Of a stretch of DNA of 64,000 nt, positions 1,911 to 23,245 are shown piece after piece. Within the stretch, counting starts at the first letter, position 1; each line of letters begins with the position of its first letter. The position numbers and the translations under genes are program-made. The stretch is taken from positions 72,135-136,134 of IMG/VR virus record IMGVR_UViG_2839026242_000001; one strand, 5' to 3'. This DNA is from a virus (taxonomy: Duplodnaviria > Caudoviricetes). Below the pieces are notes generated by a model. That model did not search any database, was not told the origin of the DNA, and worked only from the letters and a program-made list of their open reading frames with translations.

Positions 1911-2017
1911 TTTTATTCCTCCCCTCAAATTTCCTTTTCTTGCTACATCTTTATAATAACACGGTTAACTAGATAATACAACATATTTTTAGTTATTATT
2001 TTCGTTCAAATTTCGTT

Positions 2018-2164
2018 TTATTCCAATTTCATATCTTTAAAAGTCTCATCAAATATTTCAATACATTGAGAACATGCCCATTTGCTCATTATGTAACTAT
2101 ACATCACCTCCAAATTATCTTTCTCGCAATCCTCGCAACGTCCATTTTTCCATCCATCAGTCAT
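2018..2164 (-). CDS. Small Cys-rich hypothetical protein (48 aa, two CxxC)
   Basis: Manual translation MTDGWKNGRCEDCEKD...WACSQC...; AAGGAGG RBS; stop codon lies inside the junction palindrome. Confidence 0.7.
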   Translation of the reverse strand: MTDGWKNGRCEDCEKDNLEVMYSYIMSKWACSQCIEIFDETFKDMKLE

Positions 2165-2196
2165 GAAGTTATCCTCCTTGTGAAATTTTCAATTTA

Positions 2197-2379
2197 TTAA
2201 TAGCATAGTCTACCAACTTCACATTCTCTAGTATCATATACTCCCTTAATGGAGCGTATTTCATAAAGTTCTTTATCGGTTGTCAATATGACAAAACTCA
2301 TTTTAATTTTTGGATAGTATACCTCACCAATCTCGTTAAGCCTCTCTGGTTCATGCGTGTAAACATAGTATTGTTTCAT
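2197..2379 (-). CDS. Hypothetical protein
   Basis: ORF track, GAGGAG RBS, bounded by palindromes. Confidence 0.7.
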   Translation of the reverse strand: MKQYYVYTHEPERLNEIGEVYYPKIKMSFVILTTDKELYEIRSIKGVYDTRECEVGRLCY

Positions 2380-2417
2380 TCATCATTCTCCTCATTTCGC
2401 ATGAAATGTTCATTTCA

Positions 2418-2645
2418 TTAGATTCTTTCATCACACAACTCGATTTTTCCATTGTCATTAATCACATAGTCCCACTCTGTCCCACACTCCAGACATTGTA
2501 TCCATTCAGGGACAGCATACGTAACATCCGCAACAAATCGTTTCCTTTTGCTCAATTTGCCGCTTTTCAAAACCTTTTGTTCATATTCAAATTGAGGCTG
2601 CCAACGTCTAACCATTTCCTCTTTTCCACAATTAGGACATTTCAA
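2418..2645 (-). CDS. Zinc-ribbon hypothetical protein
   Basis: CPNC and CLEC pairs; AAGGAGG RBS. Confidence 0.7.
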   Translation of the reverse strand: MKCPNCGKEEMVRRWQPQFEYEQKVLKSGKLSKRKRFVADVTYAVPEWIQCLECGTEWDYVINDNGKIELCDERI

Positions 2646-2678
2646 TTACATGTACCTCCTTTCAATAAAACTAAACTT

Positions 2679-3047
2679 TCATCTAGACTTCAATCTGAAT
2701 TTTATTCCCCTAAAGATATACTGGCCGTCATCATCCAATTCTTGAATAAAAAATTCAATTTTTTCAACGTCCTCTTTGCTGTATTTTGGCTTTTGGTTAA
2801 AATGGTATCCTACAGTATCCGTATTTTTTGTCTGATTATATACTTCTGTGGTTTTAACTCCAGATGGCTTTAACTTAAGGAATTCAGCAATTTGTTTAAT
2901 AAGTCTACCATTTGGATTATCATTCGTATGATTTAATACTCCGAGCTTAAGTGCGATTTCTTCACAAAAAAGTCCCTCTCCTTCTTCGTTAAATCCAAAT
3001 TCAGTTAACAAGTCTTCGCCGTACCTCTTTACCCGTTTACTCTTCAT
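2679..3047 (-). CDS. Hypothetical protein
   Basis: ORF track, RBS, stop codon inside palindrome arm. Confidence 0.7.
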   Translation of the reverse strand: MKSKRVKRYGEDLLTEFGFNEEGEGLFCEEIALKLGVLNHTNDNPNGRLIKQIAEFLKLKPSGVKTTEVYNQTKNTDTVGYHFNQKPKYSKEDVEKIEFFIQELDDDGQYIFRGIKFRLKSR

Positions 3048-3082
3048 ATCATACTCTCCTTAAAACCAGTCTTTCATTTGGT

Positions 3083-3838
3083 TTACTCTGTTGCCACGTC
3101 CTTTAATTTCTTATCAATAATATCTGGTTCTACATCGAGTTTTTCTAATAACCATGCTATATCATCTCTATCGCCAATGTGTCCTTCTCCCCATCCTCCA
3201 CCAGCGCTAATTTCGATTGCATATACTGCGATTGGTTCAAGTTTATACCCATACCATTCAGACATCTTTTCAGCTACATCAGCAGGATAAATATATTCAT
3301 CTTCTTCCCTTTGATTATGAATTCTAATAAGGGTGTTAGCCAGATCCTTCTTAAAATCTTCTTGATTTTTCCTATGATGTCTTAATCTAATTGTGATTAT
3401 TTCACTCCCAGTTCTTTCAATTAGTTCAAAACATTCATTTTTCTTTCTTTTCCAAGCTTCTTTTGCTGCTAATACTGCCTGTTCATCTCTATTGTACCTT
3501 CTGCCTAATCCAACTCTAATTAACTCTCTTGCAAATCGCTCATCTGAATCTCGCCAAGGTTGCCCTGTTGTATGCAAATACCAATGACATAATTCGTGCA
3601 AGAGAATTCTTTTAATATGTCTCAAAGTATATCTTTCATTATTCTCATTATTGAGTACAACAGTCTTTATATCACTACAATAATATCCCGCATAATTATC
3701 CCAGTCGAGTTTGCATTCAATGGTTAATGGAGATTGTCTAGTTACTAAAAGAATCGTTGGTATTTCATTGATGCTCCAATGTTTTTTAGTCAATTGTTTT
3801 GCTTGTTTTTCAAGCCACTCTATAGTTACTTCTGGCAC
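3083..3838 (-). CDS. SprT-like zinc metalloprotease
   Basis: ILLHELCH (HExxH) followed by the typical D-F segment. GTG start chosen from the AGGAGG RBS. Confidence 0.75.
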   Translation of the reverse strand: MPEVTIEWLEKQAKQLTKKHWSINEIPTILLVTRQSPLTIECKLDWDNYAGYYCSDIKTVVLNNENNERYTLRHIKRILLHELCHWYLHTTGQPWRDSDERFARELIRVGLGRRYNRDEQAVLAAKEAWKRKKNECFELIERTGSEIITIRLRHHRKNQEDFKKDLANTLIRIHNQREEDEYIYPADVAEKMSEWYGYKLEPIAVYAIEISAGGGWGEGHIGDRDDIAWLLEKLDVEPDIIDKKLKDVATE

Positions 3839-4300
3839 TACCCAAATCCTCCTTCCTGATAAAACCAATTTACTTAAGGATTAAACAATCTAAATGAATC
3901 ATCAAAAAGCCTTACCTTTAATGTTGCCGAAACCCCTTTATTCTCCCATTTTGCATCAATGATAGTTCTAATCGGATATACTTCCTGTTCTGATTCAGCA
4001 ATAAATTTTATCCCCACCTTAATGTTTGGGAGCAAATAGATATAAGCCTCACCGTACTTCGTATATCTAACAAAATCCGCAACACCATAATCAACTTGTA
4101 CTTTAGAATAATACTCCCGCTGCCATTCCCTTAATTCAATAATCCACTCTTCTTGTGTTTGTATAGAACCATTTTTCTTCTCAGAATCTTGAACCTCTCA
4201 TGGCTAAAGCCACGAGATTCTTGGGTAGTCCGCTCTACTGAGCAGAATTAGTACATGATGTACCACCAAGCTATCCCCGCAGTTCCTGCGGTTACTGCGA

Positions 4301-5404
4301 TTATGCAGATAGTAGTCTTTTGCCTTCGGCAAGAATATTCAAACTTGCGTTTACATCCCTATCCCATTCACTATAGCAAGAAGGACACTTCCATTGTCGC
4401 AAGTTAAGATCTTTAACCTCTTTGTTTTGGTATCCACAACACGAACAGAGTTGAGAGGAAGCGAACGTTTTGCCTACGACAACGACAGTACGTCCATGCC
4501 ACTTTGCCTTGTATTCAAGCATCGTTCTGAATTGATACCAGGACACTTCGCTAATTGCTTTGGCAAGTTTGTGGTTCTTCATCATGTTAGACACTTGCAA
4601 ATCTTCAATCGCAATGATGTCGTGGTTTTTGACAATATGCGTTGAAATTTTTTGCAAGTAGTCTGTTCGGGCATTTGCAATGCGTTCATGGATTCTGGCA
4701 ACCTTAACTCGTTGTTTATTCCAGTTTGAAGAACCTTTCACACGTCTGGAAAGGATACGTTGTTCACGAATGAGTTTTTGTTCCATATTCCGTAGGAATT
4801 TCGGATTCTCGAACACTTCACCGTTAGATAGAATAGCGAAATCCTTTAACCCAACGTCAATACCGACTTCTTTGTTTGTTTTTGGCAATGGTTGCACGTC
4901 TGTTTCTACTAACAACGAAACAAAGTATTTGCCAGAGGGATTGCGTCTAATCGTAGCATTTAAAATACGACCTTCTACTTCTTTTGATTTCGCAAAACGA
5001 ACAAGTCCAAGTTTAGGGAGTTTAATCTTATCTCCTTCTATCGCAATATTTCCGTTTGTGTGTTTCGTTGTGTACGACTGAACTTTATTCCTTTTTGACT
5101 TGAAACGTGGTGCATCATTCTGCTTCTTGAAGAATCGTGAATATGCGTCTGCGAGGTTCTTTATTGATGATTGAATAGCGATGCTATCTACTTCTTTTAG
5201 CCAAGGTAATTCTTTTTTCAGATTCGGCAGTTCGGAAGAACATACTCCGTATGATAATCCTTTACCTGTTTCTTTGTATGTTTCGTTCCACTTCGCCAAG
5301 AAGTGGTTGAACACAAATCGACTGCAACCAATCGTTTTAACAATTAATACTTCCTGCTCTTTGGTTGGATAGATACGGAATTTGTATGCTTTATTTGCTA
5401 ACAT
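4301..5404 (-). CDS. tnpB: TnpB RNA-guided nuclease
   Basis: N-terminal [10 protein letters not shown]; RuvC residues GIDVG, IEDL, DRDVNA; zinc ribbon CSCCG/CPSC. Confidence 0.95.
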
Positions 5405-5410
5405 TGCTTT

Positions 5411-5821
5411 TCACCTCACTTTCTGATTTTGGATGTATTGTCGTATTTGCGCTTCCGTGTGTTCACTTACGGTTGCCACAAAGTAAGAAGGATTCCAAAG
5501 ATTCCCTCCCCATAGCTTCTTTTTTAGCTGGGGGAACTCTTTAAATAGCAACCTTGCCGAAACACCCTTTAACGCTTTGATGATATTTGGAATTGAATGT
5601 TGCGGATTACAATCAATTAGGAGATGAACATGGTCACAATCACTTTCAATTTCTGAAATCGTGAAACCATTATCTGTAGCAATTTGATTGAGTATTTCCT
5701 TTAGCTTTTTATCTATATCACCAAGCAACACTTTATGGCGATATTTCACACACCATACAATATGGTATTGGATAGAGTACACATATTCTCTACCATGTTT
5801 AACTTCTGCCATGTTATCCAC
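5411..5821 (-). CDS. tnpA: Y1 HUH transposase TnpA
   Basis: YHIVWCVKYR, DHVHLL (HUH), LWNPSYF, YIQNQ. Confidence 0.95.
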   Translation of the reverse strand: MDNMAEVKHGREYVYSIQYHIVWCVKYRHKVLLGDIDKKLKEILNQIATDNGFTISEIESDCDHVHLLIDCNPQHSIPNIIKALKGVSARLLFKEFPQLKKKLWGGNLWNPSYFVATVSEHTEAQIRQYIQNQKVR

Positions 5822-6118
5822 ATCAATTATAGGATAACATATGTAAAATGTTTTTCAATTTATTACCTCTAAATATTAGCGTTTTTGCCAATCACCAAAT
5901 TAACATATGTCGGACAATTGACGTGTCAAAAGACACACCTTGTCCGAAGCCGATTCATCTCATGACTGAAGTCACGAGTGTTCTCGGCTAATTCATAAAT
6001 GGCTTTTAGCAGAGTTTTTTCGGTTGTATCATGTCCTACAATCACAGTAAAACCAGCAGCTTCAAGATTGGCTACAATTGCATCGACATTAAACATAAGC
6101 ATTACCTCTTTTCTGTAT

Positions 6119-6694
6119 TTAACTTAACTTCCAATCAAAGTAATCTCCGGCTCTGAAAAAGTTATTGTGCGTGTCTGCATTAGGGAGTCCATCTGGATGG
6201 GCTGGAGAAACAGGCATTGCCATTCCACATGAATGACACTTTATTTCTGTTGAATTTTCATAAATATAATGATTTGCTCTATAATTACATATTACACAAT
6301 GATACCTGCATCTATAACGTTTTCGCCCATCTGGATCTACCTTAATGCCTGTCCTAATCCATTCGGGTTGATCATCTGTTGTCTGATATACTTCCTTTAA
6401 CTCCTCTGTATTTTGCAATCCTTCGATTAGACTTTGTTTGATTTCTTCACTCTTATGTACAATATCTTCTTTAGTTACATTTTCGATTGGATTTAGTTTC
6501 TCAAAGAAACTGCTACATGCTTTGCCTACCTGTTCAAATGTCTTAACCATCTCAAAAATATCTTTATCTATGCTGAATAAGTTAAATACATTTTGTATGA
6601 TGACAAGTTTGGATAAGTTATCTGCCTCCTTAAGTTCAAGTTCCACCTCTTTGCCTTTATCATCTTTGATATTGATTTTTACTGTTAAAGACAT
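6119..6694 (-). CDS. Hypothetical phage protein with C-terminal zinc ribbon
   Basis: ORF track; CVIC and CHSC motifs. Confidence 0.7.
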   Translation of the reverse strand: MSLTVKINIKDDKGKEVELELKEADNLSKLVIIQNVFNLFSIDKDIFEMVKTFEQVGKACSSFFEKLNPIENVTKEDIVHKSEEIKQSLIEGLQNTEELKEVYQTTDDQPEWIRTGIKVDPDGRKRYRCRYHCVICNYRANHYIYENSTEIKCHSCGMAMPVSPAHPDGLPNADTHNNFFRAGDYFDWKLS

Positions 6695-6755
6695 GCTATC
6701 ACCTCAATGATGATTATAAGGCAAAGGGCAGCCAAAACCAAATACAACTTACATT

Positions 6756-6995
6756 TTATCCTAACTGTAAAATCTTGAACTTAACATCTGTACCCTCTAA
6801 TAATTCACCAACATTGTAATTATGTCGATAATATCCCTTTTCATCTTTGGGATAATTCCAAAAACGTGAAAAATTACTTTTATCTATTGTATGAAATAAT
6901 CTACTATTACTGTCCCATGTTAGCATTACTTCATAGCGTTCCCCAACATTCCAAAATCCATATGCATCTTCAAGGCATTCTATTATAGCCTTCAT
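6756..6995 (-). CDS. Hypothetical protein, paralog of 8499-8738
   Basis: Shared LTWDSNSRL...RFWNYPKD.KGYYRH.Y motif. Confidence 0.8.
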   Translation of the reverse strand: MKAIIECLEDAYGFWNVGERYEVMLTWDSNSRLFHTIDKSNFSRFWNYPKDEKGYYRHNYNVGELLEGTDVKFKILQLG

Positions 6996-7030
6996 TAAAT
7001 TCCCTCCTTTCTAATCAAACCCTCATTTGA

Positions 7031-7249
7031 TTAAAATTGATATTCTTCCCATTCTTCCATATCTACTTGTTCATCACATTTTCCACAATAAATAACATCT
7101 TCATAAAATCCATCTATGTTTTCAGGTTCAATGTCATAAACTATACCATGTCTTGATCCTTCTTTTAAGTCAATTCTTTGTTTTGCTGCAACCGACACCG
7201 TAACATAGAAAAATCTAGACTCTCCACATTTTTTGCAAGTGTATTTCAT
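7031..7249 (-). CDS. Zinc-ribbon hypothetical protein
   Basis: CKKC and CGKC motifs. Confidence 0.7.
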   Translation of the reverse strand: MKYTCKKCGESRFFYVTVSVAAKQRIDLKEGSRHGIVYDIEPENIDGFYEDVIYCGKCDEQVDMEEWEEYQF

Positions 7250-7270
7250 ACTATCTCCAACTTTCCTGAT

Positions 7271-7525
7271 TCATCCACTTACCACGTTCTTATAAGCCTT
7301 TTCGTAGCCCTTAACATCGCCTCTTTTGCTCCATTCATCATAGCAAGCATCAACTTGCCAATGATAATCAGATCTTGGATTGTTAGCGGCATAAGCAGAT
7401 AGCCAGATTTTATCTTCTGTTTCCTTAAGAAGAGATTCGTAATCCATGTTACTTAACTTTTCAAGGTATTCACTTTTTGGTCTACCGTAATTATCTTTAC
7501 CTTCATAATTTCTGAGCATCAACAA
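7271..7525 (-). CDS. Hypothetical protein, paralog of 13057-13305
   Basis: Shared KIWLSA.AANNPRSDYHWQ.DACYDEW motif. Confidence 0.8.
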   Translation of the reverse strand: MLMLRNYEGKDNYGRPKSEYLEKLSNMDYESLLKETEDKIWLSAYAANNPRSDYHWQVDACYDEWSKRGDVKGYEKAYKNVVSG

Positions 7526-7552
7526 ATCCTCCTTTTCCTATCAAATCCACTT

Positions 7553-7915
7553 TTATTGCAAACCATCTAATGACGATGATTGGTCACAAAAATAGGCAGT
7601 TTCAATTAATGTAAATCTAATATAAACATCTGAGCCTCTTGTCCCTTGGTAAGCTCCATTAAAATCGGCATCAACAAATATTTTTCCTGTAATAGAACCT
7701 CCAATAACCTGATTCTCAAAATTCATATAATAATCTTCAGAAATAATCTCTAACTCATCTCCAAAAACTAATTGCAATATAAATTTTAATTCTTTTAAAT
7801 TACGCTTCCCTTTATAATAAACTAACTCCCCTTCATCATTTTCTTTCCATTTCTCTCTATTCCTGAAATACTGGCTTAAATTACGCTTTCTTTGTTCAAA
7901 TTCTTTTGTATTCAA
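7553..7915 (-). CDS. Hypothetical protein
   Basis: ORF track; stop codon in palindrome. Confidence 0.65.
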   Translation of the reverse strand: MNTKEFEQRKRNLSQYFRNREKWKENDEGELVYYKGKRNLKELKFILQLVFGDELEIISEDYYMNFENQVIGGSITGKIFVDADFNGAYQGTRGSDVYIRFTLIETAYFCDQSSSLDGLQ

Positions 7916-8032
7916 TGAACTATAACCCCCTTTTCGTTATTTCTCTAATGCTCCCATTTTATTATATCATCATTATTCCCTATTTTCTTTCTGAAACGCT
8001 CATTTTATCAAACTTTTCCTAACAAACTCATT

Positions 8033-8470
8033 TTATTCACTTAAAATACATTCATGCCATCTAGTTTCAGAATACATACCTACATTAATACATGCTTTAT
8101 CAATTTCTTTAAAATTATTTTGAAACCAATTAAGAAAGGATTTAACCTCTTTTGGATTAGCCACCTTTTTTGCCGATTCTATAGCTAAGAGTTTCATTTT
8201 ATAATAAGAATTTCGATGCTTAAGCTTCTTGGGATCAGTTATAATTCTTTGCTCACTATCCCTGTATTCAAATGCAAATATAGTGTTTGCAACCCATCCA
8301 TGTCTCCCTTGATCAGAATAGTGAAAAAGGTTGCTTTCAAAATGGGTATTAAAATAAGATGCAATCATATTAGATATGGTGTGGCACTTATTATTCATAT
8401 TGGGATCGAAAATTTTAATAATATTAATTAAGCCAATTTCTACTTGTCGTAAAAATTCTAAATCCTTCAT
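8033..8470 (-). CDS. Hypothetical protein
   Basis: ORF track; bounded by palindromes. Confidence 0.65.
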   Translation of the reverse strand: MKDLEFLRQVEIGLINIIKIFDPNMNNKCHTISNMIASYFNTHFESNLFHYSDQGRHGWVANTIFAFEYRDSEQRIITDPKKLKHRNSYYKMKLLAIESAKKVANPKEVKSFLNWFQNNFKEIDKACINVGMYSETRWHECILSE

Positions 8471-8498
8471 ATTTTCACTTCCTCATTAAATTAACATT

Positions 8499-8738
8499 TC
8501 ATCCTAATTGTATAATCTTAAATAATACCCCTGCTCCCTCAATTAATTCTCCAGTCTTATAATCATGTCGATAATAACCCTTTTTATCTTTTGGATAATT
8601 CCAAAAGCGCTCAAATTTGTCCCTATCTGTTGTATGTAATAATCTACTATTGCTGTCCCATGTTAAAATTACTTCGTACTGTTCTCCAACTTTCCAGAGT
8701 TCATATTTAGTTTCAAGACATTCAATTACCGCATTCAT
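8499..8738 (-). CDS. Hypothetical protein, paralog of 6756-6995
   Basis: Sequence similarity to 6756-6995; bounded by palindromes. Confidence 0.8.
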   Translation of the reverse strand: MNAVIECLETKYELWKVGEQYEVILTWDSNSRLLHTTDRDKFERFWNYPKDKKGYYRHDYKTGELIEGAGVLFKIIQLG

Positions 8739-8769
8739 TCATAACCATCCTTCCTATAAAATCCCCATT

Positions 8770-9003
8770 TTATCGAATTATCTCTATATACTTTTCAAAT
8801 GTATCATGGTCTAATTCAAAATAAGGAAACTCTAAATCAAAATTATAAAGTTTAATTGAATAAAAATTCTTGCCTCCACCAAGAGGGAAGACTATTGCCT
8901 CTCCTTCGTATCCAACTTCTGCTCTCAATACTGAATCCTTGCTGGTCAAATTTTTAAGCGAGAATGACTTAATAACTCTTACTTTAACTGTTTGCTTTTC
9001 CAT
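8770..9003 (-). CDS. Hypothetical protein
   Basis: ORF track, RBS, palindrome boundaries. Confidence 0.7.
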   Translation of the reverse strand: MEKQTVKVRVIKSFSLKNLTSKDSVLRAEVGYEGEAIVFPLGGGKNFYSIKLYNFDLEFPYFELDHDTFEKYIEIIR

Positions 9004-9038
9004 GATAAATCACTCCTATATTCTTATGAAATACCATT

Positions 9039-9200
9039 TTAAAAGGATATATATTGTAATTCATCATCAGTAAATCCAGCATATTCTCCATCAATAAATT
9101 CAAGTAGATTTAGCTTAATTCCATCAAGTGTTACTTGACCGTATTTTTTACCCACTTGGTTAAAATAATTTGAGTCTCGGTTAATAACTTTGAATTTCAT
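9039..9200 (-). CDS. Small hypothetical protein (53 aa)
   Basis: Manual translation MKFKVINRDSNYF...; AAGGAG RBS; stop codon in palindrome. Confidence 0.65.
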   Translation of the reverse strand: MKFKVINRDSNYFNQVGKKYGQVTLDGIKLNLLEFIDGEYAGFTDDELQYISF

Positions 9201-9248
9201 ATAACATTCTCCTTTAGCTATGTTTTTTTCGATGAAATGCCAATTTGA

Positions 9249-9392
9249 TTAAATTTCCTTCAATAGATTCTCTATATATTGAATTCGTTCATCAACTAGA
9301 ACTGCAACATAGCCATTCATTGTTTTATACTCTTTTAAACTTTCTAACTCCTTTCTTAAATCCTCTTCAAATAGTTTAACAATTTGATTCAT
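9249..9392 (-). CDS. Small helical hypothetical protein (47 aa)
   Basis: Manual translation MNQIVKLFEEDLRKEL...; GGAGG RBS; palindrome boundaries. Confidence 0.65.
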   Translation of the reverse strand: MNQIVKLFEEDLRKELESLKEYKTMNGYVAVLVDERIQYIENLLKEI

Positions 9393-9428
9393 GCCCACAT
9401 CCCCTCCATTTTCAATCAAAACGATATT

Positions 9429-9614
9429 TCATTTACATTCTTCTGGTGATTTACCAACGCATTCCTCTTTAAAAGGAACACGAATTTGTTCACCAATCTT
9501 AATATTATCCAAGTAGTCTTTTTCATAAACTCCATTTCTCAATACAAGGATTGGTTGTCTTTCTGTCATTTTTAGTTCTCCAACTATTTCCCACTTTATT
9601 TCTTTGTCCCTCAT
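9429..9614 (-). CDS. Hypothetical protein
   Basis: ORF track, AGGAGG RBS. Confidence 0.7.
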   Translation of the reverse strand: MRDKEIKWEIVGELKMTERQPILVLRNGVYEKDYLDNIKIGEQIRVPFKEECVGKSPEECK

Positions 9615-10110
9615 AAATTAACCTCCTATTTTCCATAAGCCGATATTTGATTATTATACTGGATCATTTTCTTTATCTCGAAGAGTGTGAATTTGCTCAT
9701 TCAGATCACTTTATATTTGTTTTAAATCAAAAATCACATCATTGCTTTTATTGTGAGTCAATTTCTTTAATGAGCAAACTTGCTTCGCTTAAATAATCTG
9801 CTGCCGCTCTTCTTGCCTCAACAGCCTCTGTAATATCTCGTTTCTTTTGACTTTGGTTTAACATTGGATTCACCTCGCTAAAAAATAATCAACTCGCGTT
9901 TATTAATGATCATTTATTCATCGTTAACTGCCCAAAATGTCCACAATTCAAGCATAGACATGATGCAACCACTTCATAAAACTTTTCAACTTCGTATTCA
10001 CCTGTCCAACGTGAATGAATAATGCGGTTAATATTCTGAGAATCGCATTTTTCACATTTCATTACAACACTATGATTAGACATAAATTGAACCCCATCTT
10101 CCTAATCAAA

Positions 10111-10506
10111 TTACCTTTTCATTTGTTTTTCTTCTATCTCTTTGATTGCTTCTTCTTCGCGTTTAATCATTTGTTTTGCAAGTTTAAGCATGCGTTTGCG
10201 GTTTTCAATACTTGTTGAATCATTACCCCATCCGATAATATTTAGTGAATTTTGATAAGCAATGAACATTCGTGGATCGTCAGCATGATGCGCTTTCGCA
10301 ACCAATACATTATTGCAATGATTACCAATACCAAATGAATTAATGTTGTTTTGTTCAACACGCCCCAGATATCTTCTATATCCATTCATTCCCTCGTCAA
10401 TTGCTTCAATAAATTCTTTAGGGTACTTTTCAATTTGATCCCATCCATCGTTCAGAATAGTAATTGTAGTCATATATCCCATATTCAAACTCTCCATTTT
10501 AATCAA
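10111..10506 (-). CDS. Hypothetical protein (true start probably downstream, at MGYMTT)
   Basis: ORF track. Confidence 0.7.
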   Translation of the reverse strand: MIKMESLNMGYMTTITILNDGWDQIEKYPKEFIEAIDEGMNGYRRYLGRVEQNNINSFGIGNHCNNVLVAKAHHADDPRMFIAYQNSLNIIGWGNDSTSIENRKRMLKLAKQMIKREEEAIKEIEEKQMKR

Positions 10507-10749: not shown

Positions 10750-10774
10750 AAAACCTCCTTATGAAATCACCGTT

Positions 10775-11023
10775 TTATGCTGTTGCAGTTTTTACTTCAA
10801 TAGCACAATTCTTACATATCAGCTTGCCTTTAAAATAAATTGTGTCATCTGCATTACCGCAAAACAAACAAGATGGCTGATATTTCTTCAGAATGATCTG
10901 CTCCCCATCCACATAAATCTCTAGAGCGTCTTTGATGTTGATATCAAAGGTGTCCCTTAGTTCTTTTGGTAGAACAATACGTCCCAATTCATCCACTTTT
11001 CTAACTATACCAGTTGCTTTCAT
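10775..11023 (-). CDS. AbrB-family transition-state regulator
   Basis: MKATGIVRKVDELGRIVLPKELR...LEIYVDGEQIILKKY is the AbrB signature; C-terminal CxxC pairs. Confidence 0.92.
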   Translation of the reverse strand: MKATGIVRKVDELGRIVLPKELRDTFDINIKDALEIYVDGEQIILKKYQPSCLFCGNADDTIYFKGKLICKNCAIEVKTATA

Positions 11024-11235: not shown

Positions 11236-11269
11236 AAAGTTCCTCCCTATTTACTTAATACACAGTTTG

Positions 11270-11707
11270 TTAAGACCGCCATAACCCGAGTTCTTTCAAC
11301 GTGTTGCGGGCAAGTTCCCAATCACTCAATCCGATCTCTCTTCCGTCACTAGCGTACCACCGTAAAGCATGGACAAGTTTCTCGTATCCGGCGTCAGCTG
11401 CGGCAACCACCCTGACATTCTCTGCTTTCAACCGTTCGATCTCCGCTTTCAATCGCTTGACTACATCCCGATAAAGTTTGCAGTCGTCTTCCAAGTCTTT
11501 TTCGATCCGCATATAGAATTCAATCACTCTTGCCCGGGCTTCGTTCAGCTCGTTTGCTGCCTTCTCAGCGCACAGTAACCGCATCAACGCCCTGTGTACT
11601 GAGCCATGCGGATTGTGATACTGCAAAAGAGTCTCGATATCCTTACGTTCCTCTTCTTTGAGCGGTCGATCCCATCCAAATGCCTTTCCTTCAGTGTAGA
11701 TGCTCAT
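11270..11707 (-). CDS. Coiled-coil hypothetical protein, visibly GC-richer than neighbours
   Basis: ORF track, RBS. Confidence 0.7.
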   Translation of the reverse strand: MSIYTEGKAFGWDRPLKEEERKDIETLLQYHNPHGSVHRALMRLLCAEKAANELNEARARVIEFYMRIEKDLEDDCKLYRDVVKRLKAEIERLKAENVRVVAAADAGYEKLVHALRWYASDGREIGLSDWELARNTLKELGLWRS

Positions 11708-11758
11708 ACTTTCCCCTCCCGATTATCAAACTGAGCATTTTGTAAAATTACTTATCAC

Positions 11759-12094
11759 TCAGTGAAGAAGCACAGTATCACTGGTAGACGTATCTGCATA
11801 TTGAATGATTACTCCATACTTTCTTAGATCCGATTCGATCCTTGATAGTTCATTGGTGTCACGAGAAAACCGAGAAGGCTCAACCGCGATCACTCTTTCT
11901 AGTGCATTGTGCCTTGCGACTTCAAACATGGCAGCAATTCCATCTCTATCATTTTCTAATCCTGATACCCCATTGTCAGTGAAGAAAATGACTTTCCTAC
12001 CTTTTTCAATTAGCATTAGACATTTCTCTTTTTGGAGTTTAATTGCTTCTTCGTCTTTTGTTGCAGTTCTTGAGTATACTCCGATCATTTTCAT
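11759..12094 (-). CDS. Stand-alone serine-recombinase (resolvase) catalytic-like domain, probably inactive
   Basis: YSRTAT (canonical YxRVST), D-G-VSG, and SRFSR motifs; no DNA-binding domain. Confidence 0.75.
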   Translation of the reverse strand: MKMIGVYSRTATKDEEAIKLQKEKCLMLIEKGRKVIFFTDNGVSGLENDRDGIAAMFEVARHNALERVIAVEPSRFSRDTNELSRIESDLRKYGVIIQYADTSTSDTVLLH

Positions 12095-12118
12095 AATCCC
12101 ATCTCCCCCTTCAAATCT

Positions 12119-12481
12119 TCATTTTATGGCAAAATTATGCGTCCAAATCATTAACATTATTCCTACAAATGCCGCAACAGCACAAAACCCAATAACTGAA
12201 AAATAAAATATACTTAACTTAGCTATCTCCTCTTCCGTCATTGACTTGACATCAAAAGATCCTTTGATAAGCACCTGTAGAGGATAAGCAATTAATAAAG
12301 TAAGAAACACTGCTCCAAATACCGCACCCACTGACAACAAGATTTTCAACCCGATTTGGTTCGCAATTTCACTGTAAGTATTAATAATTGTAAAAACAGC
12401 AACTGCTGAAACGCCAAATATTGAGCATAGTGCAGCAACGATATTTAATACTCTTTCAAAAAAAGCAAACTTTGCTTTCAT
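12119..12481 (-). CDS. Membrane protein (about 3 TM segments)
   Basis: Three hydrophobic stretches. Confidence 0.7.
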   Translation of the reverse strand: MKAKFAFFERVLNIVAALCSIFGVSAVAVFTIINTYSEIANQIGLKILLSVGAVFGAVFLTLLIAYPLQVLIKGSFDVKSMTEEEIAKLSIFYFSVIGFCAVAAFVGIMLMIWTHNFAIK

Positions 12482-12510
12482 ACTCTCACCTTTTGTTTAA
12501 AAACCATCTT

Positions 12511-12702
12511 TCATTCGGTTTCTTGTTGTCCATATGACCATCTATCATCAATAAATTGTTTCAGTCGTTTCAACTCTTGTGCTCTGTTATTTGCATTTTC
12601 AAATCCATGTTGATTCCCTTGCTTCTTAAAATCTTCGGCAAAATGCTCCAACTGAGCAATACGTACAACAATCTCTTCAATAATATCTTCAATTTTCAAC
12701 AT
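12511..12702 (-). CDS. Hypothetical protein
   Basis: ORF track, RBS, palindrome boundaries. Confidence 0.7.
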   Translation of the reverse strand: MLKIEDIIEEIVVRIAQLEHFAEDFKKQGNQHGFENANNRAQELKRLKQFIDDRWSYGQQETE

Positions 12703-12734
12703 ATAAACCGCTCCTTTCTGATGAAAATCTTCTT

Positions 12735-13013
12735 TTATCGAATTACTATTTGAAATTCACCTGTATCTTGATTTTTCTCTAAAGTATATTTCTGTTGATC
12801 ACTGTAAAACACCAGTTGTCTCATATTGCTGTTTTGTCGATCTATTTCGTATGGCTTTTGCCAAGTGTGCTGTAAATATGACTCCGACTTAGCGAGAAAA
12901 TCTGCTTCTTCATGTCGTTTTTCAAGTGGGAAAATAACCAACCCAAGTAGTAAAGCAATCGAAACAGGAAAATATATTGGGAACCAACTGATTAGCTGAT
13001 TTTTAATCTGCAT
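12735..13013 (-). CDS. Membrane-anchored hypothetical protein
   Basis: N-terminal hydrophobic segment. Confidence 0.65.
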   Translation of the reverse strand: MQIKNQLISWFPIYFPVSIALLLGLVIFPLEKRHEEADFLAKSESYLQHTWQKPYEIDRQNSNMRQLVFYSDQQKYTLEKNQDTGEFQIVIR

Positions 13014-13056
13014 TAGTTCCTACCTCAAATCTTGATAAATTTCTCCTTTTATCGTG

Positions 13057-13305: not shown

Positions 13306-13348
13306 TTTAAATCACTCCCAATCAAATATTGAATTTATAGAATTTGAT

Positions 13349-14961: not shown

Positions 14962-15182
14962 TTATTTCGATGTTTCTCAATCATTCTTTGAATCTCAATC
15001 AATAATTTCGGATCATCAGGCAACTCAATTTTGTTTACTTTTCTCACTACAATTTCATCTCCGTTAACCTCAACAGATACAGTATCTCCCTGTTCAATTC
15101 CTATTTCCCTTAGTTGCTCTGTCATGGACACCCCTAAGCTGTTTCCAATCTTGATGACTTTACGTTCCAATGTATGTATCAC
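14958..15182 (-). CDS. AbrB/MazE/SpoVT-fold antitoxin-like protein
   Basis: RKVIKIGNSLGVSM...GIEQGDTVSVEV motif; own promoter TTGCGT-N17-TATAAT (15205-15233). Confidence 0.8.
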   Translation of the reverse strand: MIHTLERKVIKIGNSLGVSMTEQLREIGIEQGDTVSVEVNGDEIVVRKVNKIELPDDPKLLIEIQRMIEKHRNK

Positions 15183-15372
15183 CTCTCTCTTTCTTTATGA
15201 TTCCATTATAACCGTTATGACGTTATAACGCAAGTGTTTTACTTGTAGTTTTTTATTTTATTACATTAACTACAAATGGGATGCTAACACAACATCCCAT
15301 TTAATAACTTGCCCTATTTTTTAGGCTTCCTCTTGTTTATTCATGATAGCCACCATCCGATACAATAAGTCT

Positions 15373-15711
15373 TTAATCGTGATCCCAACCTCGTTTTTGT
15401 GCCTCCGCTTTAATTTCCTCTAAATCTTGTTCGGTTGGTACATCCATATTTTCACTTTCGTCCTCCTCGTAATACAATCCGATTTTGTGAGGAGATTCTT
15501 GTATTCCAAATTGAAAAGCTTTCGTATATACTAATTCAACTGCATGAAACAGTGTAGATTCCAAATATGTTGTGGAAATAACTCCATCCGTATTTCCCCG
15601 AAACTTTCCCATAGCCTTATTCTCTTCATTGTCTTGTGTTTCCAACCAAAACAGCTTTGCTGCCCATTTTCCATCAAGTTTCTTTACCTTAATTGTATGC
15701 ATGTATGTCAT
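15373..15711 (-). CDS. Hypothetical protein
   Basis: ORF track. Confidence 0.7.
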   Translation of the reverse strand: MTYMHTIKVKKLDGKWAAKLFWLETQDNEENKAMGKFRGNTDGVISTTYLESTLFHAVELVYTKAFQFGIQESPHKIGLYYEEDESENMDVPTEQDLEEIKAEAQKRGWDHD

Positions 15712-15747
15712 AGCAAAGTCTTCCCCCTAACAAAATTTGACTTTCAT

Positions 15748-16284: not shown

Positions 16285-16451
16285 CTCCCTATGAAATCAA
16301 AGTTTTAACTAACCTAATTATACTTAGTGTCCATAGCTTATGTACTGTTTAATAAGTATTTCTCTCTCAATGCCGAAAATCCCTTCACGCTCTAGTTTTT
16401 TAATAAATTTTTTAATTTTCATTATTACTATCCGCCCTCTCAGAAATTCAA

Positions 16452-16856
16452 TTAGACTTCGATCAATTCTTCTTTATTTTTATTTTTAACGGCAAAAAAT
16501 TCACTTGGTGATACCAAACCAAAACTAATTTTCAATGCCTCATTTACTTTTTGCATAGTTTTCTCATCCAATCTGCTAACTTTATCAGTCAATCTTAGCT
16601 TGTCAATGGTTCGTATCTGTTCCGATAAAACAACAGAGTCTCGCTCAAGTCCGAATGTTTTTGCATCCAATTCCACATGCGTAGGCAATTTTGCTTTTGA
16701 AATCTGTGAGGTAATTGCTGCGACGATGACCGTTGGACTAAATCGATTTCCAATGTCGTTCTGAATGACTAAAACAGGTCGCACGCCTCCTTGCTCAGAG
16801 CCAATGACAGGTGATAGATCAGCCAAATAAATTTCTCCCCTACATACTCTTCTCAA
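16452..16856 (-). CDS. mazF: MazF/NdoA (PemK family) endoribonuclease
   Basis: [37 protein letters not shown]...AAITSQ...KLPTHVE...EQIRTIDK is closely similar to Bacillus NdoA. Confidence 0.93.
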
Positions 16857-17763: not shown

Positions 17764-18224
17764 GTCAATTCACACCTTTGCATAATAGATAAGGTGTTTT
17801 CTACGATGACTGTTATAGTTATTGCGCACCATTAACTCTATTATACCATAAGACGCAAGCATATGTTCGATAAATCTGTCTTCTTGCAAAGGAAATGTTG
17901 ATTTTTTGAATATGGCTAATTGATTTGCAATATCTAAAAAACGGGACGACTTGCAGCAATTAATCCAAATGTTAAATGATGAGAATATCCATCACTTGCA
18001 ACTATTAAAAAAATACTTTATATCAAATAACGATTTGAACGAATTTTATTTACTTGCGCATGTACGACACAAAGCATGTTCGCCAATAGGTACACCATCT
18101 GCGAAAACTGTATATGCACATTCTTCTGGGTGATCTACTTCTATTAACTTATCGCAATCCTCACATATAACTGTAATCATATTACACCCTCCCTAAATTT
18201 GAATAAATTCAGACTTTGCTTGGT

Positions 18225-18434
18225 TTATGAGCAAATATACTTTAGCGTTTCTTTATAGCATTGTAGACAAAGCTCTTCATCTACTCCGATAATATTCAAT
18301 ATTCTTATTAAATTTTTATTGCTATACATACCACAACTGGTACACATTCGTAATTCTTCTCTGTATTCCTTGTTATTTATTTTCATTTCCGCCTCCCATG
18401 AAACTATGCTTTTGTGCCGTTTTCTTCTATCCAC
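18225..18434 (-). CDS. Small CxxC hypothetical protein
   Basis: ORF track; start uncertain. Confidence 0.5.
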   Translation of the reverse strand: MDRRKRHKSIVSWEAEMKINNKEYREELRMCTSCGMYSNKNLIRILNIIGVDEELCLQCYKETLKYICS

Positions 18435-18926: not shown

Positions 18927-19002
18927 TGGCGTCCCAGACAGGATTCGAACCTGTGCATGATCGCTTAGAAGACAATTGCCTTATCCGCTTGGCTACTGGG
19001 AC
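18927..19002 (-). tRNA. tRNA-Arg (UCU)
   Basis: GTCCCAG acceptor stem, anticodon loop CTTCTAA, GGTTCGAATCC T-arm, encoded CCA. Confidence 0.9.
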
Positions 19003-19003
19003 A

Positions 19004-19079
19004 TGGTGGATCTGACAGGGTATGATCCTGCAACCTCGCTGTTATGAGCAGCTTGCTCTGCCAATTGAGCTACAGATCC
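19004..19079 (-). tRNA. tRNA with CAU anticodon, probably Ile2 (alternatively Met); atypical T-loop
   Basis: GGATCTG/CAGATCC acceptor stem, loop CTCATAA, T-loop ATCATAC, encoded CCA. Confidence 0.8.
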
Positions 19080-19979: not shown

Positions 19980-20140
19980 ATGTATTACCTCTCCTTCATT
20001 TATTTTATATTCTTATTGTACTATTCTACGACCTTTTAAGCAATATGTTTTTTATTAATTTTATATTATAAAAGCCACCTTTTTCGGTGACTTTTGAATC
20101 AAACCAGACTTTGATTACCTTCTTTAGTTGTTACGTAAAA

Positions 20141-20891: not shown

Positions 20892-21119
20892 TTAATAAAC
20901 ATCCACATTAACCACTTCAACCTCGTCAAGTTGTTTCAAACCTTCTATGTAGTTACGCGCCTGTTCTCTGGTATTGAAATCTGTTTTTGTTAGCATACAA
21001 TCATCTTCCCATTTATTCTCTTCGCTGTCCCAATATTGAACAATAACTCTGGGCTGTGTGTTATCTGCAAAATAGTTAATTCTGATTTTCGTTTTCTCCA
21101 TTTGGATTCCTCCAATCAT
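20892..21119 (-). CDS. Hypothetical protein
   Basis: ORF track; likely start at MEKTK. Confidence 0.65.
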   Translation of the reverse strand: MIGGIQMEKTKIRINYFADNTQPRVIVQYWDSEENKWEDDCMLTKTDFNTREQARNYIEGLKQLDEVEVVNVDVY

Positions 21120-21359
21120 ATAACGCCCTGCTGTCTTAGTTTAATTAAATTTTACTTTTATTTAATTAGTTCTTCACCATCTTCTGTTACCTTATACAGT
21201 CTTACGTTGAAAACTTCACTATCATTTTTCCACTGATTGTATTTAGATTCTGCCTTGCTGTAATCGAATATTGGATCAGTAGCCAATGGTGCAATATCCA
21301 TATCTGCTACAACTATGTAATACATTTAACAACCCTCCATTTTCAATACAATTCCACTT

Positions 21360-21635
21360 TTATTGTATTTTCGATATGACAAATTCAGTTATTTTGTTTA
21401 AGTCTCTTGAATTAAAATTCTCCATCTCAATTATTTCACCGTTCACCTTTTTATAAATACATGTAGTGCGTTTGCCAACTGTAGCAAACCAGTCTAAATT
21501 TCTGAAACGCGCCCTACCTCCGATAACTGCAATTCTCCCCTGTTCTTTTGCAGTTTCTACTCCATGTAAAGCTAACTTTGTTTGACCGTCTTCAACAAAA
21601 CCATTTTCTAAGAGGAATTGGATTACTTTATCCAT
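21360..21635 (-). CDS. Hypothetical protein
   Basis: ORF track; palindrome boundaries. Confidence 0.7.
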   Translation of the reverse strand: MDKVIQFLLENGFVEDGQTKLALHGVETAKEQGRIAVIGGRARFRNLDWFATVGKRTTCIYKKVNGEIIEMENFNSRDLNKITEFVISKIQ

Positions 21636-21673
21636 TTCATTTCCCCCTGATAAAATTTCAATTTATTTGGTTT

Positions 21674-22093
21674 CTAAAAATAAGTTTCAACTTTTGAAGA
21701 TATGATTGTTTTCAGTCTTCTTACATTCTTGCTGTTGTGACCCATTACAAGGTCATAGAACGCATTCGCAAATAACTCTTCTTGATCTGTTTCGTTATAT
21801 TCTGTGACCAATCCAACATTGCTATTATCGAATAATACGTGATGCAAGAAATGACCAAACTCATGCAAGAAAATTTCTTCTATTTCTTCTTCTGAAAGTG
21901 AACTATCTAAGTAAATAGTTCTGTTATTTGGTAAGTAGCCACCCAATACCCAATCATCATCTTGCTTGAGAAGATTTGCTGGAATAAACTCAACTTTAGG
22001 CAAGAATGGGAGTTGATTAATGTTCAAAATGTCGGTATTAATGATTTCAAGATTATCTGCAATCAACTTCTTTTTATTCTTCATGATAGCCAC
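21674..22093 (-). CDS. ImmA/IrrE-like zinc metallopeptidase
   Basis: FLHEFGH (HExxH) and downstream EELFANAF. Confidence 0.7.
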   Translation of the reverse strand: MAIMKNKKKLIADNLEIINTDILNINQLPFLPKVEFIPANLLKQDDDWVLGGYLPNNRTIYLDSSLSEEEIEEIFLHEFGHFLHHVLFDNSNVGLVTEYNETDQEELFANAFYDLVMGHNSKNVRRLKTIISSKVETYF

Positions 22094-22150
22094 TCCTCAG
22101 CCTAATTTTATCATTTGAGTTATTCCAATCAAATCCACTTTTATTGAGAT

Positions 22151-22366
22151 TTATTGATTGGATGGCTCTTCTGTATCAACAATGTTATACGTCTTTATAA
22201 TTTTATGATTCTCAAAAGGCATTGTTATTTTAACTTCCCATCCATTCTTAGCATTTTTCTCAGCATATTTCATTGCACCCTTAAGCGTGTTATAATGTCC
22301 AAAAAATTGATGAGAGAAAGCAGTGTTTGCATTGCGAATTGTTACATGTACCATGTATTTTTTCAC
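22151..22366 (-). CDS. Hypothetical protein
   Basis: ORF track. Confidence 0.6.
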   Translation of the reverse strand: MKKYMVHVTIRNANTAFSHQFFGHYNTLKGAMKYAEKNAKNGWEVKITMPFENHKIIKTYNIVDTEEPSNQ

Positions 22367-22560
22367 AATACCACCCCTTATCTATAAGATAGATTCCCAT
22401 GAAATCTCAATTTGAATTGGTTTTGTTCTTTGGAGCACCATTTCTACAATTTACACAAACATAGCCATAAAATGCTTTTTTCCATCCATTCGGTAGAGTC
22501 ACTTCATCCTTAACTGAATGACAAACTGAGCATTTATATTCCATATCTATCTCTTCCTTA

Positions 22561-22767
22561 TTAATGTATTTTTACTTTACCACCAGCAATATGTAAGACA
22601 AATAATGCTTTATTACTTCTGTTCATTTCAATTCCTTCGATCTGCACTGTGTCCATGAGAAATTTTCCATCTTCCCCTGCTTTTGCCATACCTCTTTTGG
22701 ATACTCCGAGCCAATCAACAGTAAACTCAATCATGATTTCCCCTCCTTTTTTCTTTAAAAGGATCAA
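22561..22767 (-). CDS. Hypothetical protein
   Basis: ORF track; likely start at MIEFTV. Confidence 0.6.
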   Translation of the reverse strand: MILLKKKGGEIMIEFTVDWLGVSKRGMAKAGEDGKFLMDTVQIEGIEMNRSNKALFVLHIAGGKVKIH

Positions 22768-22771
22768 TTTA

Positions 22772-22999
22772 TTAGGATACTTGAATTAATTCATAGTTTC
22801 TATGCAGCCAATCAATCACATCATCTTCAGTTACATACTTGTTTTCAGTTCTATTGTTACCGATTTTCCATTGAATCGTTAGGTATAAACAGTCATTTTT
22901 GTTCTCTACCATAATTTCATTTACTCCAGCATCCAGTTTGAAAACCTCATATTTGTTTAATAATTCTTTTGCCATTTCTCTTGTCACTTTCATTTTCAT
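22772..22999 (-). CDS. Hypothetical protein
   Basis: ORF track. Confidence 0.65.
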   Translation of the reverse strand: MKMKVTREMAKELLNKYEVFKLDAGVNEIMVENKNDCLYLTIQWKIGNNRTENKYVTEDDVIDWLHRNYELIQVS

Positions 23000-23245
23000 T
23001 GCTTCCTCAATTTTGAATAAAAATATAGATTAATTCAGCTTTTTCTGCTATTAATTAGCGATGCTCCTTAGCTGTTATGACTATTTGATATATTTATTAT
23101 ACACCAAAGCTCTTAGATACTCAACCGAATCTTTTTATATTTTTATTTTATTTTCAAATAAAACACGCAGCAATAATAGCTATAAAAAGCAAAACTGGCA
23201 TAATGACTTCACCGAGAACATAATCTACTTTATCTTGACTCATTT

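Follow-up and report, generated by a model that had tools for sequence, protein, structure and literature searches.

An imperfect palindrome of about 18 bp recurs between the accessory genes of an SPbeta-like prophage, and the six bases at its centre recur in the same order in a related phage whose neighbouring genes are mostly unrelated. We describe this element in a 64,000-nucleotide stretch of the viral record IMGVR_UViG_2839026242_000001 (positions 72,135 to 136,134 of the record; hereafter the window, numbered from its first letter). In our judgement the chance is about even that the palindromes are addressed crossover joints between related phages, probably for an Xer-like recombinase of the phage. 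The evidence comes from the placement of the palindromes, from the order of their centres in related phages and from the positions at which homology to other genomes begins and ends.

Results

The palindrome is enriched and stands at gene junctions

An initial inspection of the letters of the window (the original prediction) had proposed an integron-like array of gene cassettes at 2005-23034, with a short palindrome at most junctions. All seven palindromes that it quoted as examples were found in place (7/7). Scanning with the pattern ATNAAA-N6-TTTNAT (ATNAAANNNNNNTTTNAT), allowing at most one mismatch, returned 55 matches in the window, compared with a mean of 26.01 (standard deviation 5.57, largest value 43) in 100 dinucleotide-preserving shuffles of the window; none of the 100 shuffles reached 55, and the observation of a recurrent palindrome is confirmed. 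Most of these matches (37/55) fall in 1633-23034, with starts from 1633 to 23017, and 36 are within 2005-23034. When either a position weight matrix (PWM) or the one-mismatch rule is accepted, 1600-23100 contains 38 sites, only 3 of which are inside a called gene. Between 44 and 64 kb there are 9 one-mismatch matches, approximately the shuffle expectation. The late module had been said to hold a single copy, at 51042; this copy is exact, but it is not alone, since the copy at 49277 is exact as well.

The genes between ~2 and 44 kb are encoded on the minus strand, so mRNA reads the plus-strand sites of the original prediction in reverse. The oriented consensus is R-ATAAAA-T-NNNN-A-TTTTAT-Y, with a Shine-Dalgarno sequence 0-8 nt further on. 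The arms are inverted around a spacer of 6 bp, sometimes 5 or 7, and 6-7 bp are conserved per arm, beyond which conservation is near background. The site is two-fold symmetric and its half-sites vary independently, which would suit a two-fold symmetric protein complex on duplex DNA.

Nearly all copies are located between the stop codon of one gene and the ribosome-binding site (RBS) of the next, as had been claimed, and for most sites of 1600-23100, read in the mRNA sense, the following start codon comes 11-22 nt later. The 12 open reading frames (ORFs) listed as having their stop codon in an arm all end where expected (12/12), each 13-14 nt from the plus-strand start of the site, and their stop codon occupies motif positions 2-4 in the mRNA sense. 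In one relative, G064, the upstream stop is mostly outside the motif; overlap with the stop is thus frequent, not required. A site was present at 25 of 49 co-oriented junctions (51%) in the first ~24 kb of the window and at 41 of 153 on the whole contig, compared with none of 434 host junctions on four contigs, a weak control given that the host is far more GC-rich. The description of the units as promoterless is consistent with our scan, which gave 68 promoter-like hits versus 77.8 +/- 8.8 in shuffles; terminator-like hits numbered 4 versus 7.7.

The motif is found across the phage family

The motif is family-wide. Exact copies, with copies of a reversed, non-complemented control pattern after the slash, numbered 54/1 in G061, 39/1 in G062, 37/1 in G063, 65/0 in G064, 34/3 in G065, 23/0 in G066, 23/1 in G067, 13/2 in G068 and 21/1 in G069. 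SPbeta itself has 14 exact copies and 2 of the control, and five proviruses of the SPbeta group have 22/3, 17/3, 23/4, 24/2 and 17/3. Across these 15 related records the control thus has 0-4 copies versus 13-65 for the motif, and we rejected an artefact of base composition as the source of the copies. Outside the family, the corresponding counts were 23/2 in phage Tsamsa, 12/0 in Alicyclobacillus phage KKP_3916 and 3/0 in Lactococcus phage 949; a search of these three phages for YonO, the phage RNA polymerase, run without a positive control, gave no match. About 90% of the exact copies are outside called genes, though ~78% of the DNA is coding; examples are G064 (61/65), G061 (49/54), the window's contig (32/35), G067 (20/23) and G069 (19/21).

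The six-base centres are shared in order

The original prediction had described the core of the palindrome as variable. The centres are not free sequence and appear, from genome comparison, to be conserved and ordered addresses. The closest relative, G061, has a YonO 65% identical to that of the window and almost no nucleotide match with the window's array. The two phages nevertheless have 37 identical six-base centres in common, compared with 3.4 under a column-shuffle null, and 36 of the 37 are collinear. The sequence around these matched sites is close to background: flank identity is 0.35 versus 0.31 upstream and 0.38 versus 0.34 downstream, and the variable arm positions 3 and 16 (0.41 versus 0.31 and 0.30 versus 0.30) are at background too. 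Among the 34 junction sites of 2005-23034, 16 have a partner with the same centre in G061. With crude gene calls, the flanking genes on both sides lack blastp homology at 31 of 36 addresses common to G061, and 23 of 34 intervals between such addresses are without any homologous gene.

More distant pairs also share centres above chance, with 12 for G064-G069 and 10 for G064-G067 (null ~3.3), 8 and 7 of them collinear. Where whole 18-mers are identical between relatives, they are collinear in all four pairs (19/19, 7/7, 7/7 and 15/15); the intervals between them with homology coverage of at most 0.2 number 3/11, 2/3, 2/3 and 0/9. Where only one flank of a site is homologous, the centre stays with that flank, with identity of 0.83-1.0 (29 pairs) or 0.77-0.94 (31 pairs). 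A set of 64 diverged orthologous site pairs (arms 0.93 versus centre 0.89 identity, flanks 0.85-0.92) has too little divergence to be informative.

Within a genome, identical centres are no commoner than expected. The window's contig has 2 same-centre pairs versus 1.7 expected, and four genomes have 0 versus ~1.6 each. Since identical centres are not in excess, we set aside target-site duplications and att-like duplicates as an origin of the sites. One of the only two same-centre pairs on the contig consists of site-like copies at 32276 and 32824, which belong to a 56-bp direct repeat (32247-32302 and 32795-32850, 93% identity).

Homology starts and stops at the palindromes

We compared the window with metagenome contigs from four public runs (four studies), which cover small pieces of the stretch, the uncovered parts being uninformative. 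Contig X5-13 matches 6660-6725, then has 390 foreign bases, resumes for 6742-7028, has a further 509 foreign bases, and matches 7030-7270; 198 foreign bases then replace 7271-8758, and homology returns for 8759-8890. In this contig the order of the sites at 6742, 7014 and 8756 is kept, with different content between them. A further X5 contig is without 2420-2658, corresponding to one gene beside site 2401, and an X4 contig is without 10124-10492, one gene beside site 10105. Overall, 13 of 17 well-defined homology boundaries were in a site or at most 9 nt from one, compared with 6% expected by area (p=2.6e-13); against the 51% of junctions that have a site, p=0.03. The single-gene deletions, the insertions and the block replacement in these contigs bear out the prediction that the sites delimit units gained, lost or replaced singly.

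Individual slots of the array give a similar picture. A gene on the minus strand at 11759-12094 occupies one array slot and encodes a 111-aa protein that has a serine-recombinase (Resolvase) N-terminal catalytic domain only, without a DNA-binding domain; in contigs X4 and X7 this gene is present alone, with ends at 11723 and 12124. Next to it, a 485-bp stretch (11259-11743) is 98.6% identical in G003, a genome of another species of the host genus, where its context is unrelated. It covers just the gene 11270-11707 (145 aa, ~49% GC versus 34% for the phage), and the match in an unrelated context points to a recent single-gene transfer. The array also contains two 79-aa paralogues, 6751-7028 and 8494-8770, whose DNA is 77% identical; the duplicated unit runs from site to site.

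Two relatives of the phage, G067 and G069, are mosaics of 46 blocks with respect to each other. In these phages, 15 and 19 of the 92 block ends were at most 15 bp from a site, compared with 4.3 +/- 2 when junctions were drawn at random with equal jitter. A block end was found at 17 of 46 junctions with a site versus 12 of 71 without in G067 (odds ratio 2.9, p=0.017), and at 17 of 39 versus 18 of 69 in G069 (p=0.086). For ends running downstream, homology begins at motif position 0-2 in 12 of 26, and for ends running upstream, it stops at position 17-18 in 10 of 23; at those ends the two phages agree in all 18 positions of the motif and are unrelated directly outside it. The SPbeta lineage has the same edge pattern (15/40 and 10/60 unique ends). 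Breakpoints between related phages had been expected inside the palindrome core. They do coincide with the sites, but lie at the outer edges of the arms and not visibly in the core, a placement that shared arms would give in any case.

Candidate proteins

As supposed in the original prediction, a tyrosine recombinase is encoded in the window; its active site is intact. This 334-aa protein (42975-43979) has its SPbeta homologue in YopP (29% identity, E=1e-33) and not in the catalytically dead repressor YopR, and residues R160, K187, H244, H270 and Y279 are invariant in 8 YopP homologues (~30% identity). A profile of the 8 YopP homologues matched XerA (1.8e-15) and XerD (6.4e-11), as well as XerC-like proteins and XerH, with the catalytic motifs aligned; IntI4 was matched at E=1.4e-5, thus more weakly than Xer. 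Queried alone against solved structures, the recombinase sequence gave no hits, although the family profile did match. YopP has been described as a core gene product with an XerC-type domain that is expressed in lysogens. Since SPbeta integrates by means of a serine recombinase, YopP is left without an assigned job.

The recombinase gene is located 20 kb from the array. In 40709-43979 it is followed by a gene for a RecD2/exonuclease V-type helicase, and phage 949 has the same pair as ORF1-ORF2; recombinase and helicase may form one replication/recombination module. In a screen for core genes (our own gene calls, blastp), four proteins were found in all 8 relatives: two sro-like proteins encoded outside the window, the YopP-like recombinase and an HU-like protein. 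This screen clearly misses genes and serves as a lead only. The YopP-like gene is present in all three of Tsamsa, KKP_3916 and phage 949 (3/3), whereas searching for the HU-like gene recovered it from Tsamsa (23 sites) and KKP_3916 (12) but not from phage 949 (3); with n=3, the comparison is too small to choose between YopP and HU. We favour the Xer-like YopP homologue as the enzyme, a candidacy drawn from its fold and catalytic residues and unproven.

The phage and its accessory array

The window covers the early and accessory portion of an SPbeta-like prophage. The 136-kb contig that holds it has 34% GC, compared with 45-54% for other contigs of the same genome. A YonO homologue of 857 aa (44799-47372; phrog_8308) has 46-66% identity to 80 IMG/VR loci; downstream of it, the late genes are on the plus strand. 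A RecD2-type helicase and a primase-like protein are encoded in the window, and further arrays of palindromes lie upstream of the window on the same contig. Nucleotide relatives of the window in the phage collection were limited to an insertion sequence (IS) element, matched in 11 records, and in 61 genomes of the host family, matches were limited to the IS, a mazF-like gene and two single genes. Another contig of the same genome, C51 (31.6 kb, 34.6% GC), is AT-rich and has 8 PWM hits; given that the window ends at the end of its contig, C5, C51 may be the remainder of the prophage.

Several other features of the region are of note. On the minus strand, an arbitrium-like receptor/peptide layout consists of a helix-turn-helix receptor-like protein (~445 aa, 573-1928) followed by a 37-aa ORF (379-492). 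The IS200/IS605-type element is inside the array (4185-6002, minus strand), with ORFs 4301-5404 (TnpB-like, 367 aa) and 5411-5821 (small transposase-like); it is 74-77% identical to transposase genes in the 11 phage records and up to 92% identical to copies in related host genomes. Also on the minus strand of the array are two tRNA genes (18930-19002 and 19007-19079; Rfam tRNA, 60.6 and 55.5 bits) and a MazF/PemK-like toxin gene (16452-16856; Pfam E=4e-38). The host has a copy of this toxin gene on contig C27 (87% DNA identity), and most genomes of the host family have copies at 70-85% identity. A second repeated element, on the minus strand at ~29800-37400, comprises a TATAAT box, a conserved run of ~10 nt and a similar leader before the RBS. 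It is found upstream of genes starting at 30100, 30481, 30865, 31211, 32180 and 37340, and also at 15170. These elements are probably real early promoters and perhaps include the operator of the phage's own repressor. The junction sites and the two candidate proteins are listed in Table 1.

Table 1. Palindromic sites of the accessory array and candidate proteins encoded in the window
Positions	Strand	Feature	Observations
2005..2022		Palindrome, 5-nt centre variant	PWM hit; overlaps stop of ORF 2018-2164
2401..2418		Exact palindrome	Centre in order with G061; adjoins metagenome deletion 2420-2658
2665..2682		Exact palindrome	Arm contains stop codon
3060..3077		Palindrome, 1 mismatch	Metagenome contig homology stops at 3074
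6742..6759		Palindrome, 1 mismatch	In contig X5, end of a 390-nt insertion falls exactly at 6742
7014..7031		Exact palindrome	509-nt insertion in X5 between 7028 and 7030; centre common to G061
7540..7557		Palindrome, 5-nt centre	
7991..8008		Palindrome, 1 mismatch	
8485..8502		Exact palindrome	Centre common to G061
8756..8773		Exact palindrome	X5 has 198 nt for 7271-8758, resumes at 8759; centre common to G061
9026..9043		Palindrome, 1 mismatch	
9232..9249		Exact palindrome	Centre common to G061
9415..9432		Exact palindrome	Metagenome contig piece begins at 9418; centre common to G061
10105..10122		Exact palindrome	Adjoins one-gene deletion 10124-10492 in contig X4
10502..10519		Exact palindrome	Contigs X1 and X4 begin at 10493, 9 nt away
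10761..10778		Exact palindrome	
11727..11744		Degenerate copy, 7-nt centre	Edge is end of 98.6% single-gene homology with genome of another species
12110..12127		Palindrome, 1 mismatch	Contigs X4 and X7 stop at 12124; centre common to G061
12497..12514		Palindrome, 1 mismatch	Centre common to G061
12721..12738		Exact palindrome	Centre common to G061
13035..13052		Palindrome, 1 mismatch	Centre common to G061
13321..13338		Palindrome, 1 mismatch	
15360..15377		Weak copy, 1 mismatch	Centre common to G061
15730..15747		Palindrome, 1 mismatch	
16291..16308		Palindrome, 1 mismatch	
18022..18039		Palindrome copy, 1 mismatch	
18398..18415		Palindrome, 1 mismatch	Centre common to G061
20098..20115		Exact palindrome	
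21144..21161		Exact palindrome	Metagenome contig joint at 21140; centre common to G061
21346..21363		Palindrome, 1 mismatch	Centre common to G061
21650..21667		Palindrome, 1 mismatch	
22128..22145		Palindrome, 5-nt centre	19-mer identical to that at 7540
22399..22416		Palindrome, 1 mismatch	Centre common to G061
23017..23034		Weak copy, 1 mismatch	Centre common to G061
42975..43979	-	YopP-type, Xer-like tyrosine recombinase, candidate enzyme	R-K-H-(R/K)-H-Y conserved
47614..47886	+	HU-family DNA-binding protein, possible accessory or alternative binder	In 8 of 8 relatives compared

Discussion

How might an 18-bp palindrome with a private centre act as a joint? In the crossover model we propose, the palindrome would be a duplex site in which two protein-binding arms of 6-7 bp flank a six-base centre, and one such site precedes the RBS of most small accessory genes. 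When related phages are in one cell, copies with the same centre would recombine. One crossover at a shared centre would swap everything to one side, and two would replace one slot, so that a gene or block between two addresses could be replaced, gained or lost with its neighbours undisturbed. Different centres in one genome would not recombine, protecting the array from deletion. Such exchange would be site-specific and would need identical centres, in the manner of the overlap region of a tyrosine recombinase. For Cre, Flp, Xer and lambda Int, the two partners must match in that region, and a spacer that alone is conserved between tolerant arms is what a tyrosine recombinase would need. The enzyme could be the YopP-family recombinase, perhaps aided by the HU-like protein. 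The full proposal, a natural and genome-wide recombinase-mediated cassette exchange by a YopP-family enzyme with unique, fixed spacers in SPbeta-like and Tsamsa-like phages, is more tentative; we regard it as possible, with the balance somewhat against it.

A number of observations weigh against the crossover model. Among the 17 boundaries in metagenome contigs, 4 are away from sites (11053, 6725, 7270 and 9865), and several boundaries in the window are 4-9 nt past the 3´ arm, in the RBS, such that a homology-driven crossover fits as well as a fixed cut. In G067 and G069, about three quarters of the block ends located at junctions are not at the exact motif edges. The arms of known tyrosine-recombinase sites are 11-13 bp long; here 6-7 bp are conserved. 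The second catalytic arginine of the YopP family is R in 5 of 10 proteins and K in the other 5, including that of the window's phage, and phage 949 has the YopP-like gene yet only 3 exact sites. No result ties any protein to the sites. For the centres, a pseudo-centre control that counted identical 6-mers beside the sites gave 17, 58 and 2. Raw counts are thus no clean control, and the weight rests on the column-shuffle null and on collinearity. Finally, gene calls were made by a crude script of our own, making the counts of junctions and of flank homology approximate.

The loose placement of the boundaries, which spread from the 5´ arm to the RBS with no single fixed bond, is what one would expect if the palindrome primarily bound a conserved phage protein, such as the HU-like protein, in a regulatory or architectural role, and if exchange were a by-product of short-homology recombination by the general recombination system of phage or host, without a dedicated site-specific recombinase. 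Wherever an 18-mer is identical, 18-20 bp of uninterrupted homology are available, the HU-like gene was found in the two phages outside the family with many sites and not in the one with few, and T4-type phages shuffle small genes through recombination between conserved regulatory cassettes (PMC2839356). This account has difficulty with the comparison to G061, in which only the six-base centre is kept, both the flanks and the variable arm positions being at background. Nothing in general homologous recombination calls for keeping exactly the centre, whereas a spacer-matching recombinase does, and palindromic arms are needless for homology alone. We therefore think it unlikely, though worth keeping in view. 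The same centres tell against a purely regulatory role, which we consider improbable. In that case the copies would be operators or roadblocks of a silencing protein, and the match with homology boundaries would reflect the survival of recombinants in which the motif is intact. The stoperators of mycobacteriophage L5 provide a model for silencing operators at multiple sites. The ~35 intergenic copies in long, promoter-poor, co-oriented arrays, and the overlap of stop codons with an arm, would fit such a role, as would the presence in this phage family of a multi-site repressor with a recombinase fold, MrpR/SroF (PMC10516654; bioRxiv 10.1101/2025.11.27.690993). However, the arms are kept across phages with differing immunity repressors and boxes; SPbeta has its SPBRE element, of different sequence, at promoters, and in phi3T a monomer binds an asymmetric box of 26 bp. 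The main text of the MrpR study reports ten ChAP-seq peaks, all at SPBRE promoters (PMC10516654), and an operator would leave unexplained why 36 different centres are in order amid unrelated genes.

Lying as they do after one stop codon and before the following Shine-Dalgarno sequence, the sites could also be elements acting in RNA, for example intercistronic hairpins for translational coupling, processing or stability. Of 8 sites folded, 4 fold better than nearly all shuffles (7014, for instance, at -9.6 kcal/mol, z=-6.0); the other 4 do no better than shuffles, at -0.1 to -1.7 kcal/mol, and GC-rich stems are absent. Variable paired positions do not covary in 380 oriented junction sites from five phages: positions 3/16 form 157 Watson-Crick pairs versus 149.3 expected (p=0.18), and positions 7/12 form 112 versus 121.7. 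An Rfam scan of the window found the two tRNAs only and no family at the sites. A hairpin would also leave both the conserved centres and the boundaries of DNA homology unexplained, and we consider a role in RNA very improbable. We give next to no credence to the idea that the motif is a functionless by-product of AT-rich composition and of the stop and RBS context. The 5´ arm does often hold a stop codon, and the difference between a 34% GC phage and a 45-54% GC host weakens the host comparison, but the dinucleotide shuffles (26 versus 55 observed), the reversed pattern of the same composition in the 15 related records, the stops of G064 mostly outside the motif, and the collinear, conserved centres all speak against it.

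It has long been asked whether the mosaic joints of phage genomes lie at gene borders because of conserved linker sequences, or because random illegitimate recombination is followed by selection. In the phage family described here, an 18-bp punctuation marks the exact joints, and its centres keep their order between genomes otherwise unrelated in sequence at those places. If the centres are addresses, large temperate phages could turn over anti-defence and other accessory genes rapidly while gene order is kept, and the arrangement would be a natural counterpart of engineered cassette exchange. If the exchange is driven by YopP, ordered phage mosaicism would have a dedicated molecular cause. 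SPbeta, with its 14 exact copies, and phi3T, both of Bacillus subtilis, carry the motif and the YopP gene, and the idea is directly testable there. We found no description of a junction palindrome in SPbeta-like phages in the literature, supplements and subscription papers aside, and we know of no counterpart to an ordered series of unique six-base addresses across a phage family.

Within the phage family, the nearest known elements are those bound by proteins with a tyrosine-recombinase fold. About ten SPbeta promoters have an SPBRE to which MrpR (YopR) binds (PMC10516654), and the SroF box of phi3T is a 26-bp asymmetric sequence bound by a monomer (bioRxiv 10.1101/2025.11.27.690993). As described there, both resemble the palindromes in being multi-copy sites, in the same phages, for a protein of that fold. 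SPBRE differs in its promoter location and in serving a catalytically dead repressor, whereas the window sites are between cistrons. We rejected SPBRE as the identity of the motif, because the element common to 7 MrpR-bound SPbeta promoter regions differs in sequence and sits at promoters. The promoter-early stem-loop (PeSL) elements of T4-type phages are likewise short conserved motifs; they separate small non-essential ORFs in a large phage's hyperplastic regions and bound insertions, deletions and replacements between close relatives (PMC2839356). PeSL, however, is described there as a strong promoter with a terminator stem-loop, recombining by homology (PMC2839356). The window sites have no promoter or terminator signal, half of the 8 that were folded are without a stable stem-loop, and they are 18 bp long with position-specific centres.

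The stoperators of L5, ~30 short sites in the early genes of a temperate phage, are similarly located in short intergenic gaps, often over stop codons. They are asymmetric, oriented and specific to the immunity repressor, and change with the immunity group; unlike them, the window sites are palindromic, their arms are kept across distant relatives and their centres appear to be addresses. With integrons, the array shares mostly promoterless single ORFs accompanied by a recombination site, co-oriented arrays and a tyrosine recombinase as the presumed agent. Integron attC sites work as a folded single strand. In the window, by contrast, the variable symmetric positions do not covary, the sites are 5´ of the RBS, the centres seem to be conserved addresses, and in profile searches the recombinase family scores better against Xer (E=1.8e-15) than against IntI4 (E=1.4e-5). 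The assembled contigs compared with the window show insertions and deletions at the sites, and no circular excised cassette was seen among them. Of the integron-like capture and shuffling first proposed, the exchange of cassettes at the sites is retained, and integron mechanics are not, there being no attC-like fold. The defining features of integrons and of PeSL that we tested are absent here.

Xer-type systems are also among the nearest. The dif spacer is six bases long, and Xer-type sites in general have arms of ~11 bp and spacers of 6-8 bp; we know of no ordered addressing among pdif sites. Here too the candidate enzyme is Xer-like and two inverted arms enclose a six-base spacer. The enzyme fold agrees with an Xer-type reading and the site layout does so in part, the conserved arms being shorter; the reading is not proven. 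In Acinetobacter plasmids, many pdif sites of Xer type occupy the accessory regions of one replicon and flank discrete adaptive modules that pass from replicon to replicon (PMC6449649). Xer action on pdif is itself largely inferred. Unlike pdif, the palindromes are on a phage replicon with a phage-encoded candidate enzyme, only 6-7 bp are conserved per arm, and each copy has its own centre in a fixed order. As a working analogy, the heterospecific lox and FRT sites of engineered recombinase-mediated cassette exchange have 13-bp arms and 8-bp spacers, and the identity of the spacer picks the partner. Two different flanking sites allow a clean swap without intramolecular deletion, as we propose for the array; those systems are engineered, whereas one of the kind proposed here would occur in nature and have dozens of addresses in each genome, with an enzyme that is unproven.

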